Shown here piece by piece: positions 1 to 45,315 of a DNA stretch of 64,000 bases. The notes beneath the pieces are model-generated. The model saw only the letters and a program-made list of their open reading frames with translations. It was not told the DNA's origin and made no database searches. Each line of letters starts with the position of its first letter. Position 1 is the first letter of the stretch. The stretch is taken from positions 96,001 through 160,000 of IMG/VR virus record IMGVR_UViG_3300021255_005861. One strand, given 5' to 3'. The stretch is from a virus (lineage: Duplodnaviria > Caudoviricetes). The position numbers and the translations under genes were made by a program.

Positions 1-1803
1 CCCGAAAAGTACAAGGAGTCCGGGAGCGAGACGTACAAGACGATAAGCGTAGAGATAAACTCCAAGTACACCAAGCCGTCTGGTGGCATCCCGAAATCCG
101 ACCTTGCGAGTGCCGTGCAGGCAAGCCTCGTCAACAACGTCACGCTTGGTAACGGCGAGGCGCTGGCGATAACGTTCCCGTATTCGTTGAGAACCGGGCG
201 AAGCACGGCTCTCGTATTGGTGTCGGGCAATAACTCCAAGTACAGCCTTGTAGAGATAGGGTGGTTCAAGTCCGCTAACACAGCCATAGCGACAAACCGC
301 ATCTACACCCACGTACTCGCGAGCAGGGATTCCGAACGTGACAGCGTGCCCGCAATTTACGTGGACTACGGGACGTCCGAGTCCGGTTGCGCCATTTATC
401 TCGGCTTGAATAATAGCGAATGGACCACGCAGATGTCGGTGTTGCTGAACTGCGAGAACGCAGGTAGCGTTGCCATTGGTGCGGTAAGCCCTGCGACGGC
501 ATCCTCCGCAACTGACATAAGCGGTAATATGGTGTGGAACGTGGACAGCCGTCGGGTGCTGGGTACGTTGTCATCGTCGTCGTGGAGCGGTGACGACACC
601 AACATTCCTACGCGCGGGGCCGTGGAAGAGAAGATTTCGGATGCGATGAGCGGTGAACTCGGCGGGTGGCTTGGGGTGTTCACGGTTGCCGCGGCCAACT
701 ACAAATGCGCGGCAAAGAACTTCAAGAAGGGCGACTGGATGACGGTCAGCGAGGCTGGTACGCTCACGTATTGGCCTCAGAACGGGAGCACGTCCACAAC
801 GCTCGCCGTGGCCGCGAACAGCGACGTGTACTGGACCAGCGACGGATACCTACAAGTCAAGCCCTCTACGGCTGTTCAAGTATACCCCGTTACCAGCCTT
901 TCGGACTGGAATACGCTCACTAGCACCGGGCTGTATCAAGTTGCATCGCAGGCTAGCAACGTGCAGAACTCTCCTGCAGACGGAGTGACGGGCATCAGTT
1001 GCCTCGTAAGCGCATCCGGCGGAAAGGTGCTGCAGATGGCGCAGACCAACTCGACGATATTCTACAGGGCTTACGTCACGGGAAACTGGAGCGCATGGCG
1101 AGACGTGAAAAGTGCGGAGAGCGCAACGAATGCCGTCAACTATATGACGAATGGGCAGCCGTATGGTATTGATACGAGATTCCGCGAATTGCAGACTGCG
1201 ATAGGGAACACGATAAATACATGGATGCTCGTCAACAACTCTAATAATTGGGTCAAGTACAACGCGTATACTGGTACTAGCTACGACTCGGGGACACTCC
1301 AGTCGTCGGTGCTTATAAACGAGATTGTCTATGCCGCTGGAAATACAACTGAACTAGACCTACGTATAGGCATAGGAAGTATTACGGACGACGAGAAATT
1401 TGCGATGTTTCCTCCTTTTGGATATTGCGGTATTAACGGAAGTGGTGTAGAACTTCGTAGGGCTTGGAAGCGTTTTGTGCGCTACCGTATAACGATATAC
1501 AACACGAGCGATTCCACCGCCGCATTGTATGCGATATGCGGTGGCCGCGCGACTGATACTAGGGCAGGCTATTGGAGAAGAGGCGCGGTAGTTGTTGACT
1601 ATACGGAATATTTAACCCCAAATACAGACCCTAGAGGATGGTCTGTAGGCTGGTTGAACAAGGTCCAGTTCGCCACGCTATTGGCGCACAAGTGGGGAAC
1701 ATGGGAAGTCTGGTGGTATCGCGATGGGCCTGAAAATGACCCGAATTTTTCAAGCTACGACTACATGTTCATCACTACAATCAAGGCACCTAGTATAATT
1801 TAA
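1..1803 (+). CDS. Tail fibre / receptor-binding protein, 5'-truncated by the window edge
   Basis: Frame is open from base 1; KYTKPSGGIPKSDL motif and knob-like segment DWNTLTSTGLY...IFYR...NWSAW; Ser/Thr/Gly-rich. Confidence 0.7.
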   Translation, partial: PEKYKESGSETYKTISVEINSKYTKPSGGIPKSDLASAVQASLVNNVTLGNGEALAITFPYSLRTGRSTALVLVSGNNSKYSLVEIGWFKSANTAIATNRIYTHVLASRDSERDSVPAIYVDYGTSESGCAIYLGLNNSEWTTQMSVLLNCENAGSVAIGAVSPATASSATDISGNMVWNVDSRRVLGTLSSSSWSGDDTNIPTRGAVEEKISDAMSGELGGWLGVFTVAAANYKCAAKNFKKGDWMTVSEAGTLTYWPQNGSTSTTLAVAANSDVYWTSDGYLQVKPSTAVQVYPVTSLSDWNTLTSTGLYQVASQASNVQNSPADGVTGISCLVSASGGKVLQMAQTNSTIFYRAYVTGNWSAWRDVKSAESATNAVNYMTNGQPYGIDTRFRELQTAIGNTINTWMLVNNSNNWVKYNAYTGTSYDSGTLQSSVLINEIVYAAGNTTELDLRIGIGSITDDEKFAMFPPFGYCGINGSGVELRRAWKRFVRYRITIYNTSDSTAALYAICGGRATDTRAGYWRRGAVVVDYTEYLTPNTDPRGWSVGWLNKVQFATLLAHKWGTWEVWWYRDGPENDPNFSSYDYMFITTIKAPSII

Positions 1804-1851
1804 CGACTCGGGCAAGAAATCCCACTCATCTTTAGCGTGTGGGTAGTTCAT
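1804..1851 (+). mobile_element. Miniature IS200/IS605 end remnant (single hairpin)
   Basis: ggcaagaaatcccactcatctttagcgtgtgggtagttca resembles the CTTTAG-loop end hairpins of the TnpB elements at 18245-19625 and 32640-34006. Confidence 0.55.
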
Positions 1852-1863
1852 CGGAGATAACTT

Positions 1864-2061
1864 ATGGGCAGCAATATAGCAAAATGGATACGCATGATGC
1901 GCAAGACCAATCCAAAAGCCTCTATCGTCCCTTCCTTCAACGAGGCAGACTCCGGCAAGGTGCTCGCCGCAGGGAAGGACGGGGAGCCCACGTGGGCGGA
2001 CTGCGAAGGCGGGGTACCGCTGGAGGACGGCGAGTCCATCATCGTGTCCAAGGAAGAGTAG
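1864..2061 (+). CDS. Hypothetical protein
   Basis: ORF abuts the next gene. Confidence 0.55.
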   Translation: MGSNIAKWIRMMRKTNPKASIVPSFNEADSGKVLAAGKDGEPTWADCEGGVPLEDGESIIVSKEE

Positions 2062-3900
2062 ATGTCTACGAGAGAACGGGTACTGCAACGGGTGCGGGAA
2101 CTACGAGCCCAGCATTTCCACCCGTCGCGCCTTACTGACGGCGACCGATTCCTGTTGGAGCGCCTAACTACACTGCATGGCTACCGCACCTTCTACACGG
2201 GAACCCCGCAGGGCGAACTCTTCATACACTGGTTCTACCGCGACCGCTCCGAGGACCGCCTGTCCCGCTGCGAGATATTTCACTTGAACATGCTCCGCTA
2301 CTTCAACGTGATGGACAAGGTGGAAGCCATACATATCCGTTGTGCAACGACACAGGGAAAGACCCGCGCGATGGAGCAGGCGATATCTATTATCTCCGAG
2401 GGTCACGCGTCCGTGGACTTCCAGTTAGTGACGCCCAAGCGCTCGTGGGAACACGACACCTTCAAGGAGTGCGTCGAGTACGCCGTGTCCTCGGGCAAGT
2501 TCGTATACTACATCCACTTCAAAGGCGCCTCCCGCATTTCTGATCCAACCCTGGGCATACCCGGCAGGATACTGAACCACTGCTCCGAACTGGACCTGCT
2601 CTATTGGAACTACCTCATGTACCTTGCGATGTTCAACGCCCCCGACGGCGTGAAGGCCATAGGCCCGCTCCTGCACAAGGGAATGAACAAGACGTACAAG
2701 AACAGGGACAAGTCGTGGTCGCAACTGTGCACGGGGGCTCAGGTGTTCCACTACTCAGGCAGTTTCCAGGCCTTCTCCGGCAACTACATCCGCGAGTGCC
2801 TCTCCGCATGCGGTATGGCAGACCGTCCTGTAAGGGACGCCAGGCTGTGGGTCAACGACCCGTATACGGTAGAGATGTTTCTCAGCCTCGTAGCCTTGCG
2901 GAAGGACGTGTATTCGCTAGACGTCCCCTATACGGCCACCAACGGGATATACGCCTGTTACACGAAACACAAGATTCCGAAGTATGAGGCGGCGTTTAAA
3001 AAATTATTTGCAAGTATTTGTATTGCTAATTGGTCTTATAAGAATATTGGTGGAACTGAAACGTTTAACTATGCTTTGGCAACGGCCTTAAAACAATTAG
3101 GGTATTTCGTTTGTTATTATTCGCCTAATATGGGTGTTGACGGGCTTACAGAAAAGGAATTGGTTGCCGCGGGTATTACCCCTTATAGGGGCGAACCGCT
3201 TCTTTGTTGCTTTGCTAATCAAAATGTCGGTGTGCATTTTTTGGGGAAATGCCCTGTTATACAGACGTGTCATTCTGCAATAATAGGCCCCGAACGGCCT
3301 ATTCGTAATATGAATGCTTACGTATCTATTACGGAAGAAGTTTCGGACTACTTGGATAAACTTGGATATAAGTCTGTACAGATTAGAAACGGTGTTGATT
3401 TGGAGCGGTTTAATTCCCGGAAACCTTTGCGTGCTATACCCCGAGTTCTTTCTATTTGTCAAGGCGATGACGCTTTATTGCAGGAAGCCTGTTCTCGTTT
3501 GGGGTGGTCTTTCGTGAATGTTCCAAAATCTTCGGATGCTCGTATATGGCACATAGAGGATTTGATAAACGACGCTGATATCGTTGTAGGCATAGGACGC
3601 TCGCTCTACGATGCCATGGCGTGCGGACGTGTTTGTATTTCGTGGGATAACCGTCCGCTGAACCCGTATACGGGTTGCGGATACGTGACGGCTGAACGCT
3701 GGCATGACTACGCCCGCACGAACTTCACGGGGAGAGGATATCCGAGGATAGACACGGTAGATGGGCTTATACGAGAGTTATGTAAGTACCGCCCCGCGGA
3801 CGGGGTTACGATGCGGGTATTCGCCGAGCGGGAGCTGGACATGCGCAGGAACGTGCTGAAGTACTTGGCGTTGGCCGGGATAGAAATAAGCAAAAAGTAA
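2062..3900 (+). CDS. Two-domain protein with C-terminal GT-B (GT4-like) glycosyltransferase
   Basis: GGTETF, NGVDLERF and DIVVGIGRSLYDAMACG motifs; N-terminal YIHFKG...FHYSGSF domain. Confidence 0.7.
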   Translation: MSTRERVLQRVRELRAQHFHPSRLTDGDRFLLERLTTLHGYRTFYTGTPQGELFIHWFYRDRSEDRLSRCEIFHLNMLRYFNVMDKVEAIHIRCATTQGKTRAMEQAISIISEGHASVDFQLVTPKRSWEHDTFKECVEYAVSSGKFVYYIHFKGASRISDPTLGIPGRILNHCSELDLLYWNYLMYLAMFNAPDGVKAIGPLLHKGMNKTYKNRDKSWSQLCTGAQVFHYSGSFQAFSGNYIRECLSACGMADRPVRDARLWVNDPYTVEMFLSLVALRKDVYSLDVPYTATNGIYACYTKHKIPKYEAAFKKLFASICIANWSYKNIGGTETFNYALATALKQLGYFVCYYSPNMGVDGLTEKELVAAGITPYRGEPLLCCFANQNVGVHFLGKCPVIQTCHSAIIGPERPIRNMNAYVSITEEVSDYLDKLGYKSVQIRNGVDLERFNSRKPLRAIPRVLSICQGDDALLQEACSRLGWSFVNVPKSSDARIWHIEDLINDADIVVGIGRSLYDAMACGRVCISWDNRPLNPYTGCGYVTAERWHDYARTNFTGRGYPRIDTVDGLIRELCKYRPADGVTMRVFAERELDMRRNVLKYLALAGIEISKK

Positions 3901-15442: not shown

Positions 15443-16834
15443 ATGGAACAGCAGTGCGGACGGAAAATATGCTTGAAACCGAGCAAGGCACAGGTACGGA
15501 CGATGTACCGTATGTGTGCCGTCTCCCGCCGTGCCTACAACTGGAAACTGGCCGAGCAGAACAAGGCTTACGAGGAAGCCAAGGCCAACACGCCGGAAGG
15601 CGAGAAGGTCAAATGCACCCTCGGAACGCCGAGGGACTGGCACAAGGAATGGTGCATCTACAAGAAGCTCCCTGATAACAAGTGGATGACGGAAGTTTCC
15701 AAGTTCTGTGGCCAGGAAGCACTAATCGACCTCGGTTCCGCATGGAAGCGTTTCTTCAAAGGATTAGCCAAGCATCCACGCTTCCACCGCTATAACCAGG
15801 ACAACTCGTTCCGCTGCTCAGGTGGTGTATTCATCGGTCATGATTTCGTCCAGCTCCCTACCCTCGGCAGAATCAAGCTCCGCGAGAAGGACTACATCAA
15901 GATACCGAAGGATGCCGAGAAGATACCGCTTGCCATGGCGACCGTATCGGTGGATGCCGCTGGTAAATGGTATGTCTCCTTTGCCTATGTAGCCGACATC
16001 GTTCCAGTCCACGAATCCATATCTTCGTTCGATGAGCAGGACATCGTAGGCGTCGATTTCGGTGTGAAGGACCTCGCAATCACGAGCGACGGCATCGTGT
16101 ATGCCAACCCGAAAGCCTATCGCCATGCAAAGGCTAGGCTCCGTCGTGCTCAACGGGCACTCTCCCGCAAGAAGAAACACTCCAAGAATAGGGAACGGTG
16201 CAAGAAACTACTTGGTAGAATCCACCGCAGAATAACCAACATCCGTGTCAATGCGGCTCATCAGTTTACCGCTGACATTACAAAACACACGAAGCCGAAG
16301 GCTATAGTCATCGAGGACTTGAAGCCAAAGAACATGTCCAAGAACCATAAATTGGCTTCGGCTATCCTCGATGCCAACTTTGGTAGGATGAGGCAGTTCC
16401 TTGAATACAAGTGTGCATGGTTAGGCATACTGCTGTTCTTCGCTCCGCAGTTCTATGCTTCGTCAAGATATTGCTCCCACTGCGGGCAATACTACAACAA
16501 GGATTTGACCCTGGACGACAGGGAGTGGGTATGCCCGGTATGCGGACATAAACACGACAGAGATTACAATGCAGCCAGGAACTTGCAGTTCTATGGCCTG
16601 TGGCTACTAAATCTAGTAGTCCCAACTAATGACAATGCGGTGAGATACACCGTAAGCGACAATTCCGTTGCGAATGCTTGCCCCCACGGCAACGCCCAGT
16701 GCGTTACCTATCGGGAAGGTATGGTTTACACCAGCCCCAGAGACATGAGGTTGCAGTTCTTTGAAACACAGGAACAGTGCATGGCGATGAAGCAAGAAAT
16801 CACCAATACATATTTAATTGGTAGAAATGTGTAG
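15443..16834 (+). CDS. tnpB: TnpB RNA-guided nuclease
   Basis: GVDFG, IVIEDL, CSHC..CPVC, HDRDYNAA; C-terminal tail overlaps the omega-RNA region. Confidence 0.92.
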   Translation: MEQQCGRKICLKPSKAQVRTMYRMCAVSRRAYNWKLAEQNKAYEEAKANTPEGEKVKCTLGTPRDWHKEWCIYKKLPDNKWMTEVSKFCGQEALIDLGSAWKRFFKGLAKHPRFHRYNQDNSFRCSGGVFIGHDFVQLPTLGRIKLREKDYIKIPKDAEKIPLAMATVSVDAAGKWYVSFAYVADIVPVHESISSFDEQDIVGVDFGVKDLAITSDGIVYANPKAYRHAKARLRRAQRALSRKKKHSKNRERCKKLLGRIHRRITNIRVNAAHQFTADITKHTKPKAIVIEDLKPKNMSKNHKLASAILDANFGRMRQFLEYKCAWLGILLFFAPQFYASSRYCSHCGQYYNKDLTLDDREWVCPVCGHKHDRDYNAARNLQFYGLWLLNLVVPTNDNAVRYTVSDNSVANACPHGNAQCVTYREGMVYTSPRDMRLQFFETQEQCMAMKQEITNTYLIGRNV

Positions 16835-39151: not shown

Positions 39152-39254
39152 ATAGGACAGCATATTTCCAAGTATAAATATAATATATATTCCGCAGAAA
39201 AACAACAATGTAAGAAGAAAATAAGATTTTGCCATCCTGCTATATCATTTCCCG

Positions 39255-40308: not shown

Positions 40309-40683
40309 ATGGAAAAGAAAAGAAAGACTGCAGGCCCGAGGCATCCGGGCAAGGACAAGTACCCGGTGCATCACGAGGCCGAGACTATAACCATTCCACG
40401 CGCCGAATACGACGCGATGGTGGAGGAACTGCGGGACAGGCGCATGCGTGCCAACCGCAGGTGGATATCCACCGATACGAGGCTCCCGGATCCCGAGGAG
40501 TACGTAATCGTGTACGGGTCGGACTGGTGGAATGGTGGCAGTTACGCGATGCTGAAGGTAATGAAGGAACGTGGCCCGTTCGGTGAGATTCAGTGGTCGG
40601 ACGGGAACGGTCCCGTGTCCGTTGAGGACATCTCGTACTGGACGCATTTTCCCGCAGCCCCGCGAGGTAGAGATGGAAATTAA
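40309..40683 (+). CDS. DUF551-like protein
   Basis: WISTDTRLPD...SYWTHFPAAP. Confidence 0.7.
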   Translation: MEKKRKTAGPRHPGKDKYPVHHEAETITIPRAEYDAMVEELRDRRMRANRRWISTDTRLPDPEEYVIVYGSDWWNGGSYAMLKVMKERGPFGEIQWSDGNGPVSVEDISYWTHFPAAPRGRDGN

Positions 40684-41398
40684 GGGAAAGGTACACTGCT
40701 TATTCGAACAATCTGGGGTATTCAAGAACCAGTTCAAGGAACTCGGGTACGAGGCTTTCGACTACGACATCCAAAACCACTTCCACGAGACCGACCACGT
40801 GGTGGATCTGTTCAAGGCGATAGAGGACGCCTACGACGGGAAGCCGAGCCTCTTCGACGACATCACGCCCGACGACCTCATCATGGCGTTCTTCCCTTGC
40901 ATCTACTTCTCGTGCATGAGCCAGATGCTCATAAGTTACACGCACCGCAACTACACGAATTACTCGCCAAAGGAGCGCTTCGACGCCATCCTCCAGCGTT
41001 CGGCGAACCGCGAGCTGTTCTTCTCCCGCGCCGTTAAGATGCTGGCCGTGGCGAAGATCCGGGGCCTTAGGATAATCATGGAGAACCCGTGGAGCGAGCA
41101 GACGTTTCTCAAGCAGAACTTCCCGTTCAACCCCAGCGTCGTGGACATGAACCGGACGCTCCGCGGCGACTACTACGTGAAGCCTACCGCCTACTGGTTC
41201 ATCAACTGCGAGCCAACGAACGGGCAGACGCTACAGCCACGGAAGCCGGGGAAGAATATCTGCCAGGTAGCCCCCAACGGGATGCCCGGAATCTGTAACG
41301 AGGAACGCAGCCTCATACACCCGGACTACGCCCGCAACTTCATCTGCGACTTCGTGCTCGGGAAACGGCAGGAATTTGGGCAACTCTCGCTCTTCTAA
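40673..41398 (+). CDS. Divergent phage C5 DNA methyltransferase-like protein
   Basis: CLFEQSG, FFPC, MENP, KPT motifs; ends QLSLF. Confidence 0.7.
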   Translation: MEIKGKVHCLFEQSGVFKNQFKELGYEAFDYDIQNHFHETDHVVDLFKAIEDAYDGKPSLFDDITPDDLIMAFFPCIYFSCMSQMLISYTHRNYTNYSPKERFDAILQRSANRELFFSRAVKMLAVAKIRGLRIIMENPWSEQTFLKQNFPFNPSVVDMNRTLRGDYYVKPTAYWFINCEPTNGQTLQPRKPGKNICQVAPNGMPGICNEERSLIHPDYARNFICDFVLGKRQEFGQLSLF

Positions 41399-41452
41399 CG
41401 GGTTTTGCCCCTACGCTATATTGGTAAAAACTCTCGCTAAAAGGAATATTTT

Positions 41453-42562
41453 ATGGGAATACGAGTATTGAGCCTTTTCGACGGCATGGGTTGCGGCAGG
41501 ATAGCCCTGGAGGAACTCGGAGTCAAGGTGGACACGTACTACGCGTCGGAGGTAGACAAGAACGCCATCGCAATGGAAACTCTAAACTTCCCGGACACGG
41601 TCTGCCTCGGCGACGTGACTAAGGTGGACGCCCGCAAGCTCGGGCACATCGACCTGCTTATCGGCGGGTCGCCGTGCTTCACTAAGGGACACAAGGTACT
41701 TACCGAGAACGGGGAGAAGAACATCGAGGACATCGTGCTCGGCGACAGGGTGTTGACACACACGGGTTCGTATATGCCCGTAATCGATGTAGGAAGCAAG
41801 TTCTCGGACGACCTTTACGAGATGGTTCTCGCTGACGGGACTACGTATCACGTGACAGGAAACCATCCGTTCTATGCTACTACCGATGGGAAGGTTTTTT
41901 CCTGGGTGGCCTGTTCGGAACTTACCCCGGAACATGGGATACTGAAGGTAGACCGAGTCACGGTCACGCAGTTCAAGGGCAGGGATAGGATACCGGGCGA
42001 TACCGTGTACAACATGACTGTGGACGTGGACCACAGCTACTCGGTTAATAATTACTTTGTACATAATTGCACGAACTTCAGTTTCGCCGGTCGCCGCAAC
42101 GGCATGAATACTACCACGAACGAAGAAATATACTCGCTCGATCGCTATCTTGAACTCAAGCGCGATGGCTTCCAGTTTGACGGCGAGTCCTACCTGTTCT
42201 GGGAGTACATGCGCATCCTCGGGGAACTCCGCGAGACTAACCCGGACGTGTTCTTCTTTTTGGAGAACGTTGAGATGGGTGAGAAGTGGGAATCCGTGCT
42301 GACGAAGGCGATCGGTATTCCCGGCGTGCACGTCAATTCCGCCCTCGTGTCCGCGCAGAACCGCCGTCGCATCTATTGGACTAATATCCGTACGAAGAAT
42401 GGGGGACTGCTCGGGTTCGGGTGGCAGGTACCCGACATCCCGCAGCCCGAGGACAAGGGCATCATGCTCTCGGACGTGCTCGACGACGTAGTGGACAGGA
42501 AGTACTATCTCAAGGACGAGGTGGTGGACAAGCTGCTCGCCAACGGGGTGAAGGGTGCGTAA
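41453..42562 (+). CDS. C5 DNA methyltransferase, N-terminal catalytic part (motifs I-VIII) with intein
   Basis: LFDGMGCG, GGSP-[intein]-C, LENV, QNRRRIYW; stops before the TRD. Confidence 0.9.
   Translation: MGIRVLSLFDGMGCGRIALEELGVKVDTYYASEVDKNAIAMETLNFPDTVCLGDVTKVDARKLGHIDLLIGGSPCFTKGHKVLTENGEKNIEDIVLGDRVLTHTGSYMPVIDVGSKFSDDLYEMVLADGTTYHVTGNHPFYATTDGKVFSWVACSELTPEHGILKVDRVTVTQFKGRDRIPGDTVYNMTVDVDHSYSVNNYFVHNCTNFSFAGRRNGMNTTTNEEIYSLDRYLELKRDGFQFDGESYLFWEYMRILGELRETNPDVFFFLENVEMGEKWESVLTKAIGIPGVHVNSALVSAQNRRRIYWTNIRTKNGGLLGFGWQVPDIPQPEDKGIMLSDVLDDVVDRKYYLKDEVVDKLLANGVKGA
41675..42067 (+). other. Mini-intein (131 aa) at the catalytic PC motif
   Basis: CFTKG...TGNHPF...FVHN/C. Confidence 0.9.
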
Positions 42563-43836
42563 CAAGGCCTTATGTATGCCCTGCCTGCGCTACGGTGTGG
42601 TGGTACCCGAGTCGCAGAAAGTTCCTTGTCTTATATCTACGTACCAGCAGGACAGGTTCTACGACCCCGCGGGCGGGTTGCTCCCTGCGCTGGCTAAAAA
42701 CCTTGAAGGATTTTTGATTTTGGTCTATGAAGAAAGTGCTCGTTAATCCGCTCTTCAACCACCCGGTACACGGATGGCTCACGCTGTTGCAGGCCGAGGA
42801 TAAGTCGTTCTGCCTGTGCGCCAAGTACGCGCATCAGCCACGGTTCGACATCAAGACGTACATTATGGATTATGAGGATGTGGCATGATTAGGTGCACGT
42901 GGAAACAGCAACGCAGCGAGTTCGGGAAGCTCCACCGGCACGAATACGAAAACCTGCACTCGCGGGAATACGGCGGTAGGCAGGCCATGAAGGAAAAGGC
43001 GCTCGTGTTCGACAAGTGCGGACCGCTTACGCTCGCCCTCGGCGACAACGTCATCTTGGAACTGGACGAGGTGTAGCCATGTCCGTTAATGTTTTGCGCA
43101 TCCGAAGAAGCGACTACGGGAAAGAGCACCGCAAGGCGTACGAGTACGGGCATTCCCGCGAATACGGCGGGATGCAGTCCATGGTGGAACGCTATCCTAG
43201 TACCGACGGCAAGAGCGGCCCGCTAACGACCGTGCTCAAGGACAACTTAGTGATCCATTATGAGTAGTGCTCGTATATGATTTTGCCCACCCGCTATAAT
43301 GTACGATATGGATAAGATGCCGGTTCTAGTTGGATACAAGTGTGGAGTGACCCCCCCCCATGCAACGGGAAGGCGCCTACACTCACGACGGAACTGGCGC
43401 ACCGGACGAACTCGTACGGCCTGCCCCACGTTTTGATATTTGAGATATTTAATGGAAAAGAACCTTAGAAACCCCCCCCCTCCCCCGGAAAGGAAGGTAC
43501 ATGAAGACTAGCATGCATTTCAGCAAGAGTTACTTCGGCGTGGACACTTGCACGGATCCTGCGTCATCAAAAAGTTGCTGTCTTACGAGCGGGGACTACC
43601 CTACGGTACATGCGGGTGGAGTTGAAGGGTTCTGCAAAAGGACATACTTGTTGGACATTGAGGTACTTGAATGAGGGTCGCATGTAATCCTACATGGAAG
43701 AATGGAATACTCATACCCCCCCCAGAGGAGGAACAAGAGTACTTGCATACAGGCGTTCCTGTGCAAGTGGTTCGTGCCAAGTAAGACTCATGACCTGACG
43801 TTCGTGATGGACTATGAAATTTTAGAAAAGGAATAA
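42555..43836 (+). other. Array of seven TRD-like microgenes (42555-42746, 42727-42888, 42885-43076, 43079-43267, 43308-43468 frameshifted, 43501-43674, 43671-43836 frameshifted)
   Basis: Each has K-x-x-[CTP]-[LI] and a C-terminal hydrophobic strand; starts and stops are coupled. Confidence 0.65.
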
Positions 43837-43839
43837 CCG

Positions 43840-44649
43840 ATGGCATTTTTCGACATGGAAGAGATAAAGCCCAAGGAGGAACCGTCCTCCGACGGGAGAA
43901 TTATAACTCTCAACGGCAAGAAGGTGCACGTCCTCGGTATCCGCAGGCTCACTCCCGCCGAGTGCGCCCGCCTGCAGACCATACCCACGTGGTACGCATG
44001 GTACGGCAACTACGCGGATGAACTCGTGGACGGGGTGTCCACGAAGGGGTATAACGTGGCCCTCGGGCTGCTCTCGTCGGACGTCGTCACCAAGAACGTG
44101 TCCGAGGTGCTCTCCGTCATCCCCGTGGTGGAATCCTCGTGCACGCAGGTCAAGGCGGAGAAGCTCTCCGTGTCCTTCGATACGGACATCCCGGATTCTA
44201 GCGCCCGCTCGGTGTTGTTCGTCAAGGGCAAGGACGAGACGTCGCTCCCCGCCGGGTTTACCCGTGAGGTGGACATGGGAGGGTATCAAGTGTCGGTTAT
44301 GCCTTCCGGCGTGCTGTCGGGCAGGTTGCCGGAGTCTACCGACGAGGTGGGTTTCATCAAGGTGCTCAAGGGCTTGCACGACGAGAGCCCCGTTACGGCG
44401 GTGTCGTACTTGATAGCGTGGTCTCTGTGCCGCGGTATCCTCGCCACGATGCACGGGGTGTCCCTCCGCGTGGACGGGACATGCACGGTCGCGGCAGGCA
44501 GGCTGACGTGGGAACTAACGTCGCTCCGGATTGGGCAGGTCAAGCAGATAAGCGACTCCAGCATATACAAGGCTCTCGGCAACGGGTGGACGGTGGATGT
44601 CGTCAAGCACTTCTTCTCGTTCCTCCCGAAGGAATGGCGTGCGGCGTGA
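43840..44649 (+). CDS. C5 DNA methyltransferase, C-terminal part (motifs IX-X) with a large insertion
   Basis: RRLTPAECARLQT ... YKALGNGWT. Confidence 0.85.
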   Translation: MAFFDMEEIKPKEEPSSDGRIITLNGKKVHVLGIRRLTPAECARLQTIPTWYAWYGNYADELVDGVSTKGYNVALGLLSSDVVTKNVSEVLSVIPVVESSCTQVKAEKLSVSFDTDIPDSSARSVLFVKGKDETSLPAGFTREVDMGGYQVSVMPSGVLSGRLPESTDEVGFIKVLKGLHDESPVTAVSYLIAWSLCRGILATMHGVSLRVDGTCTVAAGRLTWELTSLRIGQVKQISDSSIYKALGNGWTVDVVKHFFSFLPKEWRAA

Positions 44650-45315
44650 AGGACTGGACGGGAAATCGCAACAGCACGGTAGCGCTACTAGGTAGCACCC
44701 GCGACACGGAAAACGTGCGTGAGGACAACGACTTCTACGCCACGCACCCGCTTGCTACGGAACTGTTGCTTGAACTGGAGGAGCTCTCGCACGATGTGTG
44801 GGAACCCTGCTGCGGGCAGGGTCATATCGGGAAGGTACTCGCGGCACGGGGCTTCAACGTGAAGGCTACAGATCTTGTCTACCGCGGATATGGTAGGGGG
44901 GGGGGAGGACTTCCTGCAGTGCACTACCCCGTTCGACGGGGATATCGTCACGAACCCCCCGTACATGTACGCCCCAGAGTGCGTCATCAAGGCATTGGAG
45001 CTCATCCCCGAAGGCCGCAAGGTCTGCATGTTCCTCAAGCTGCAGTTCCTGGAAGGACTTTCCCACTATGAACTTTTCAAGGCATACCCGCCACGGACTA
45101 TTTACGTGGCCGTACGCCGCATGCAGTGCAGCAAGGGCGGGAAGTTCCTCGACGCCTCCATGGTGTGCTATTGCTGGTTTGTATGGATTAAGGGGTTTAA
45201 AGGTACACCCGAATTGAAATGGTTCAACTACGAGGCCCGCGAGACCGCATATCCCGAACTGCTGCACATCGCCAACCCCGAAGATACTCCAGGCACATAC
45301 CCGAAGTTCTTCTAG
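44646..45315 (+). pseudogene. Amino (N6-adenine type) DNA methyltransferase frameshifted at a G10 tract
   Basis: DFYATHP and WEPCCGQG in one frame, DFL...TNPPY in the other; G9 restores the frame. Confidence 0.8.

Follow-up and report, generated by a model that had tools for sequence, protein, structure and literature searches.

A split phage C5-methyltransferase locus with candidate free-standing target-recognition microgenes

Must the target-recognition domain of a DNA methyltransferase be part of the enzyme chain, or can it be supplied by small separate proteins? The question is raised by a locus (positions 41453-44649) in the window, a 64,000-nucleotide stretch comprising bases 96001-160000 of a single 185,666-bp contig (IMG/VR record IMGVR_UViG_3300021255_005861) that is apparently a large phage genome. 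Here the two conserved-motif blocks of a C5-methyltransferase lie on separate genes, which we call the N-part and the C-part, and the interval between them holds seven small open reading frames (micro-ORFs, M1 to M7). A preliminary description of the window had read these as recognition microproteins that plug into a two-part catalytic scaffold; conservation, selection, homologues and a structural model of M4 now support that reading, and we infer action in trans. We think it probable that the locus encodes a multispecific phage C5-methyltransferase in which a catalytic and a closing subunit combine with alternative recognition microproteins, some of them apparently phase-variable, from an array that recombination reshuffles.

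A micro-ORF array between two methyltransferase parts

As the preliminary description had it, motifs I-VIII and IX-X are carried by separate genes, and all the ORFs that it listed are present (Table 1). The N-part matched PF00145 in Pfam (E 2.4e-22) and phrog_116, 'DNA methyltransferase', in PHROGs, and its nearest solved structures are DNMT3A/3B (E 4e-16). Its motifs LFDGMGCG (I), GGSP/C (IV, the slash marking an interrupting intein), LENV (VI) and QNRRR (VIII) form invariant columns in the homologue alignment, and we predict that it is the catalytic half of a DNMT3-like C5-methyltransferase. The C-part scored 21 bits against PF00145, where the cut-off is 22, and matched phrog_116 at E 6.5e-11; in its alignment, IRRLTPAECARLQ (motif IX) and LGNGWTV (motif X) are invariant. 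Free-standing C-part homologues of 265-271 amino acids (aa) form nine clusters (P0075-P0083) at 71-93% identity. The N-part ends ahead of any module and the C-part begins past the module cores; the sequences suggest that the two parts alone would be insufficient as an enzyme.

All seven micro-ORFs, which span 42-63 codons, carry a core K-x-x-[CPT]-[LI]-x-[STAL] and a hydrophobic strand with a Glu or Asp 0-7 residues before the stop. This core-plus-tail pattern was derived from the seven modules themselves and is thus post hoc; it matches exactly these seven among 3,349 six-frame open segments of the 186-kb genome and nothing in 20 shuffles. The preliminary description had noticed the shared core and terminal strand. 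In other loci the pattern is found only in methylase intervals, including the non-orthologous modules of the relatives L021, L009 and L018. Scans of the micro-ORFs against Pfam and PHROGs returned no family. M3 and M4 are paralogues with 72% DNA identity across 81 nucleotides (nt). Coupling by ATGA overlaps, as previously described, is present at M2/M3 and between the M6 stop and the upstream M7 start at 43671, and the earlier size estimate of roughly 50-65 aa needs correction in that the sizes of M5 and M7 depend on C-tract length.

An exhaustive HMMER search with M4 across 1.84 billion proteins gave 74 matches. The best of these are free-standing proteins of 64-73 aa that align end to end and occur in other phage lineages, which supports free-standing modules as a real layout; many others are tandem modules within long methylases (P0009, P0012 and P0013). 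Two of the small matches led to close relatives, L011-L013, of which one is on a 182-kb contig, and L014-L017. Their flanking genes are 88-92% identical to those of the window, and the N-part with its intein, the micro-ORF run and the 269-aa C-part are kept. Gene boundaries proved conserved: N-part and module stops, the start of the C-part and most ATG starts are retained in the relatives, and a continuous ORF with random breakpoints was not seen among them. Module content varies, with M0, M1a, M1b, M2, Mx, an M3/M4 hybrid, M5 and M6 in L011, and M0, M1, M2, an Mx/M3 hybrid, M4, an extra ORF, M5, M6 and M7 in L014. Recombinant modules in relatives include P0002, which joins the head of M3 to the tail of M4, and P0063, in which the head of Mx precedes the body of M3.

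The layout extends further. In L021-L025 (55-kb contigs), an intein-less N-part of 240 aa stops after LLANGVKGAE; behind it come four micro-ORFs, with G8 and C8 tracts among them, and then a C-part of 171 aa. The arrays of L009/L010 comprise at least seven modules whose frames change, and L018 and L019 hold further arrays, that of L019 adjoining a classical Dcm-type C-part. In L018, a 1.5-kb contig that shows just part of the context, the micro-ORFs follow a TnpB-like (IS200/IS605 family) ORF, with no N-part before them (positions 3-1022). N-part homologues were clustered at 90% identity, and among the best 120 clusters 70 hold an N-part only (at most 262 aa), one split cluster having 692 member sequences, and about 36 are longer, most with motif IX in-chain. 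The window N-part ends in LLANGVKGA before its stop, as do most of the 70, which typically end in NG[VI]KGA; this ending is also found in three of the five clusters that carry an intein. IMG/VR scans gave no match to M4 and distant partial matches only to the C-part. In a cultured phage collection, the nearest records came from Bacteroides phages, whose methylases are continuous (SJC10, 479 aa; BT498P1, 370 aa), and a split C-part, P0098, had none above 41% identity among the matches listed.

The frames (start modulo 3) of the N-part, M1 to M7 and the C-part are 2, 0, 1, 0, 2, 2, 1, 1, 1, and GAGG, GAGGA or AAGGA stands about 8 nt 5' of the ATGs of M3, M4, M6, M7 (43671) and the C-part. By Nei-Gojobori counts on orthologous modules, the pooled ratio of nonsynonymous to synonymous differences per site (pN/pS) in the annotated frames is 0.11 for the window versus L014 and 0.17 versus L011, against 1.4-3.2 in the other two frames; for M2 it is 0.14 in its own frame versus 1.5-5 in the others. 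Because purifying selection is confined to the annotated frames, we conclude that each module is translated in the frame annotated for it, as the preliminary description had supposed. This selection is no weaker than that on the catalytic parts (pN/pS 0.15-0.19 for the N-part and 0.20-0.24 for the C-part) and therefore excludes pseudogene decay. Three C-tracts and one G-tract do lie at frame changes, and the neighbouring N6-adenine methylase of the window is out of frame at its G10, as might be expected of a degenerating multispecific methylase or of false frameshifts from homopolymer assembly errors. However, no homopolymer stands at five of the eight junctions, other, independent assemblies from short reads show the same layout, as do at least three lineages, and the split point is conserved in the N-part-only clusters counted above. 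On the grounds of selection, recurrence across lineages and this conserved split point, we rejected decay or artefact as highly improbable.

The same frame data bear on recoding, by which frameshifting, readthrough or transcriptional slippage would fuse the pieces into long multispecific chains of the SPR/phi3T type, with no free microproteins. M6, M7 and the C-part lie in a single frame with only a TGA and a TAA between them, the N-part and M0 of L011 are in the same frame across a TAA, and long C or G runs can provoke polymerase slippage. Yet the frames shift by +1 or -1 without a rule, and the step between orthologous neighbours varies among relatives: M5 to M6 goes from 2 to 1 in the window and is same-frame in L011 and L014, and the M6-to-C-part step likewise differs. 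Programmed frameshifting or readthrough would need fixed frames, and varying relative frames therefore fit independent translation. Moreover, a change from G10 in L012 to G11 in L011 shifts everything 3' of the tract relative to the N-part, the modules have their own ATGs, most with a Shine-Dalgarno sequence, all three stop codons are in use, and the N-part stop is kept across lineages 70-94% identical; no slippery heptamers were noticed by eye at the junctions. We regard recoding as distinctly unlikely.

Modules as candidate recognition domains

Homologues of M1, M3, M4 and M5 lie inside C-parts or occupy the recognition-domain position in continuous methylases, those of M1 being found at this position in methylases of 367-451 aa. 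We take the module core and tail to be putative counterparts of K-V-R-T-I-T-T ... F-P-V-F-M-N-E of DNMT3A, just before motif IX. A model of the N-part, the C-part and M4 as three chains, each with its own alignment, gave an interaction prediction score from aligned errors (ipSAE) of 0.72 (runs 0.71-0.74), versus 0.00 for the best of three controls, with contact agreement between runs of at least 64% and a partner predicted local distance difference test score (pLDDT) of at least 61. In the model, the M4 tail (residues 57-62) pairs with C-part residues 29-37 (VHVLGIRRL), the M4 core (44-51) lies on N-part residues 297-305 (motif VIII), and the N-part C-terminus (365-368) touches M4. Modelled contacts of this kind are what one would expect if a single chain were cut in two places. 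The multimer check that had been proposed for this locus thus places M4 between motif VIII and the strand before motif IX, and shows compatibility of M4 with both parts, not binding.

The microproteins might instead act as regulators or decoys that bind the scaffold, or host methylases or restriction enzymes, as inhibitors or timers, with specificity in the window clade coming from the C-part insert that separates motifs IX and X. This insert is conserved, being kept down to 31-40% identity in other lineages and missing from shorter C-part homologues, and the model gives a binding geometry, not catalysis. A low-confidence model of the C-part (mean pLDDT 56) gave no Foldseek match in the PDB at E 0.001 or better. 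But the insert co-occurs with in-chain modules (P0088-P0093), and the L021 lineage lacks it despite having micro-ORFs; because the insert occurs with in-chain modules and micro-ORFs occur without the insert, the two are independent. Also counting against regulators or decoys, four modules are homologous to recognition domains that work in-chain, and the docked site is the canonical recognition-domain position. We consider this alternative unlikely.

Homopolymer tracts, recombination and a proposed mechanism

Nine G or C runs of at least 7 nt occur in the genome, and four of the nine lie within 1.6 kb at this locus, three in the array and one in the next gene. As in phase-variable genes, frame-setting homopolymers stand in the ORF or start region of M5 (C9), M7 (C8) and the N6-methylase (G10). 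At M5, C7 or C10 joins the leader MDKMPVLVGYKCGVT, which is conserved and starts at ATG 43308, to the core to give 52-53 aa, whereas C8 and C9 do not; at C9 the ORF is 43340-43468, with GTG 43340 in frame with the core. The tract is C9 in the window and L011-L013. In the C9-T-C5 tract that follows, C8 or C11 would extend M6 from ATG 43452. At M7, the in-frame start is ATG 43702 for C8 (44 aa) and ATG 43671 for C7 or C10 (54-55 aa); C9 leaves both out of frame. For the N6-methylase, G9 or G12 restores 222-223 aa, and with G10 the reading frame ends at residue 141; in L011/L012 the gene is whole and has no tract, and it is missing from L014.

Tract lengths differ between close relatives and among Logan contigs from four runs (X1-X4) of one study. 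Counting these contigs, M5 tracts are C8 in L014 and run X4 and C10 in runs X2 and X3, with C8, C9 and C10 all seen among the Logan contigs; M7 is C8 or C9, the C9 in run X2 versus C8 in the window; and the N6-methylase has G9 in three runs (X2-X4) versus the window G10. L011 and L012 differ across 12,457 nt solely in G11 versus G10. Such tract-length variation is the signature of a contingency locus; since the length differences lie between near-identical genomes, the modules point to phase variation, and we infer switching within one population. Elsewhere in the genome, G8 at 88150 (window -7850) stands 4 nt before an ATG, and C9 at 176571 (window 80571) lies in an apparently intergenic AT-rich stretch; these may be further switches.

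The Logan contigs also contain module deletions and replacements, with joints 43431 to 43840, 43524 to 43783 and 42878 to 43112. Together with recombinant modules P0002 and P0063, and with C-parts of other lineages that hold in-chain modules (P0088-P0098), such joints between strains would fit a cassette store, in which the modules are a reservoir for recombination into an in-chain site, comparable to pilin or hsdS cassettes, and only fused variants are active. A repeat search at the locus, however, found M3/M4 paralogy only and no flanking or inverted repeats able to drive programmed rearrangement, and no recombinase is adjacent. The window C-part has no in-chain core to replace, the unfused state is found in all assembled relatives, and silent cassettes need no conserved starts, ribosome-binding sites or stops right after the tail. 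A mere cassette store is, in our judgement, rather improbable.

In the reading that we favour, a two-part enzyme with alternative recognition microproteins, the N-part would become active once its mini-intein splices out at the catalytic cysteine, and the C-part would supply motif IX, the insert and motif X. Each micro-ORF would encode one target-recognition module of about 45-63 aa that slots between the parts, its K-x-x-x-L-T-T core against N-part motif VIII and its terminal strand paired with C-part VHVLGIRRL just before motif IX. Different modules would confer different specificities, the phage DNA would be methylated at several motifs, and several host restriction systems would presumably be evaded. 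Poly-C slippage in or before M5, M6 and M7 would switch single modules, or their N-terminal form, on or off, the G10 tract would switch the neighbouring adenine methylase likewise, and phage progeny would differ in methylation repertoire. One enzyme molecule would hold one module, and the repertoire would therefore be multispecific, not combinatorial; the 'combinatorial' methylome of the preliminary description was overstated.

Several points weigh against this reading. M1 starts with GTG and has no clear ribosome-binding site. M2, M6 and M7 are recognition-domain-like by motif only: no in-chain homologues of them were found, M6 had no match among longer proteins (in itself weak evidence), and an Atlas look-up of M2 gave no usable match. 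Assembly and action in trans are read from sequence and modelling, with M4 the sole module in the three-chain model; the pass of that model may rest on likeness to solved single-chain C5-methylases, and the ipSAE mark, which 58 of 80 solved complexes attain and so do 2 of 110 mismatched pairs, is calibrated only roughly for user-supplied alignments and three chains. The C-part of the L021 lineage holds two in-chain modules, with which extra modules would face competition. As to switching, M5 has what we read as its 'off' length in the window as well as in each of the four assembled relatives, C10 being found in two Logan contigs only; the tract differences lie between assemblies or contigs, not within one population; and short-read assemblers can miscount long homopolymers.

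Genomic setting and comparison with known systems

The split enzyme belongs to a methyltransferase gene cluster that runs from a C5-like gene (40571-41398) to the N6-adenine methylase. The C5-like gene, directly 5' of the split enzyme, is an unsplit second C5-methyltransferase-like gene that matched phrog_757 and nothing in Pfam. The N-part mini-intein sits exactly at the motif IV catalytic Cys, which thereby becomes the +1 extein residue. It starts with Cys (CFTKGH), has block B LTHTG, ends YFVHN before that Cys and is without an endonuclease domain; the flanking P74 and C206 are invariant, and intein-less relatives have a precise gap and read GGSPCTNFSFAG. Five of the 120 best N-part clusters have an intein at motif IV and most lack one. 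Neither this intein nor the C-part insert nor the homopolymer tracts figured in the preliminary description. In L011, an adjacent SNF2-type helicase (1069-3159) has a faint intein-splicing match and a downstream 1010-aa protein (15530-16195) has a LAGLIDADG domain, and this phage group seems rich in inteins and homing elements.

The preliminary description had placed a phage promoter copy at 43281 inside the array, and an exact motif copy, one of nine in the genome, indeed lies at 43282. The motif TTTGCCCNNNNGCTATA occurs nine times in the 186-kb genome, the majority of copies 10-45 nt ahead of a start codon, and on the plus strand of the window at 39228, 41404, 43282, 49970 and 57169; at up to three mismatches, the window holds five copies of the TTTGCCCACCCGCTATA type versus 0.1 expected. 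It is probably a phage-specific promoter. A scan for the sigma-70 consensus found nothing beyond chance, and the repeated motif is without sigma-70 spacing.

Table 1. Features of the split methyltransferase locus and its surroundings (window coordinates)
Feature	Position	Strand	Details
Promoter-like upstream motif	41404-41420	+	TTTGCCCCTACGCTATA, 32 nt 5' of ATG 41453
N-part, predicted C5-methyltransferase motifs I-VIII	41453-42562	+	369-aa precursor; PF00145, phrog_116, DNMT3A
Class-1 mini-intein	41675-42067	+	131 aa (N-part aa 75-205); Hint_2 and Hom_end_hint, DnaE/gp41-1 intein matches
M1	42555-42746	+	63 codons from GTG (putative start); core KVPCLIS / YQQDRFYDPAGG..PAL, tail LILVYE; pN/pS 0.23 vs L014
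M2	42727-42888	+	53 aa; core KSFCLCA, tail YIMDYE; ATG kept in L011 and L014
M3	42885-43076	+	63 aa; M4 paralogue; ATGA overlap with M2; pN/pS 0.06-0.27
M4	43079-43267	+	62 aa; ATG start (listed GTG 43016 further 5'); core KSGPLTT, tail LVIHYE
Internal upstream-motif copy	43282-43298	+	exact TTTGCCCACCCGCTATA, 10 nt 5' of ATG 43308; kept in L011 and L014
M5	43308-43468	+	leader MDKMPVLVGYKCGVT, C9 tract, core in other frame; core KAPTLTT, tail VLIFE; core pN/pS 0.04-0.16
C9 tract	43351-43359	+	within M5
C9-T-C5 tract	43472-43486	+	between M5 and M6 ribosome-binding site; C14 in L011/L012, C6 in L014
M6	43501-43674	+	57 aa; core KSCCLTS, tail YLLDIE; Shine-Dalgarno AAGGAAGG; pN/pS 0.11-0.12
M7	43671-43836	+	alternative starts 43671 (GAGG Shine-Dalgarno) and 43702; C8 tract; core KSTCIQA, tail FVMDYE
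C8 tract	43716-43723	+	within M7
C-part	43840-44649	+	269 aa; linker GRIITLNGKKVHVLG, motif IX IRRLTPAECARLQ, insert, motif X (GNGWTV)
Insert between motifs IX and X	44002-44550	+	about 183 aa; by alignment in P0075-P0093, not in P0096-P0105
N6-adenine methyltransferase, out of frame at G10	44646-45315	+	EPCCGQG and NPPY in two frames
G10 tract	44896-44905	+	within N6-adenine methylase

Taken beyond the window, we hold it an even call that a widespread group of uncultured gut and rumen phages uses exchangeable specificity microproteins of 45-65 aa in a two-piece scaffold, HsdS-like in function, homopolymer-switched and recombination-reshuffled, as a hypervariable, bet-hedging methylome against methylation-sensitive and methylation-dependent restriction. 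If action in trans is true, a microprotein of about 50 residues can supply the sequence recognition of a C5-methyltransferase, loci now annotated as fragments or hypothetical proteins would be renamed, and a natural plug-in scaffold would be at hand for engineering methylation specificity. Module arrays, homopolymer switches and module recombination would then form a new phage-side diversity mechanism in the restriction arms race.

A literature search turned up two-subunit, multispecific and phase-variable precedents and no described array of free-standing recognition microgenes, in agreement with the preliminary description, which knew of no system of this form. The methyltransferases of Bacillus phages SPR, phi3T, rho11s and H2 carry tandem modules between motifs VIII and IX, with one specificity each. 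The present locus resembles them in having several modules between motif blocks, four of which (M1, M3, M4 and M5) are homologous to in-chain modules, but those enzymes are one polypeptide with a Dcm-like core, whereas here nine ORFs lie in changing frames with conserved stops around a DNMT3-like core. In Type I systems, specificity resides in HsdS, a protein of its own that can be exchanged, and the methylome is altered by switches based on homopolymers or recombination; HsdS works alike but is unrelated, being part of a multi-subunit N6-adenine enzyme without homology to the modules. In phasevarions, simple-sequence repeats switch phase-variable Type III mod genes, and so the methylase, on and off. 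Those repeats control a whole enzyme of the bacterial chromosome, whereas the tracts described here lie in single phage recognition microgenes and in a neighbouring N6-methylase.

Closest in architecture are the split C5 enzymes. M.AquI has a large subunit with motifs I-VIII and a small subunit with motifs IX-X, the break falling in the variable region (PMC3404938), and methylase fragments cut in the variable region can complement each other (PMC3404938). As in M.AquI, motifs I-VIII and IX-X are on separate products here, with the split point kept in at least 70 clusters; in M.AquI, however, two pieces share the recognition region, whereas this locus has as many as nine ORFs and encodes its modules as products of their own, 45-63 aa long. 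In M.EcoHK31I, a small beta polypeptide supplies motif IX in trans to alpha (PMC3404938). Its small piece is thus a conserved motif and its recognition domain stays in the large subunit, whereas at this locus the variable recognition element appears to be the separate piece, present as several alternatives.

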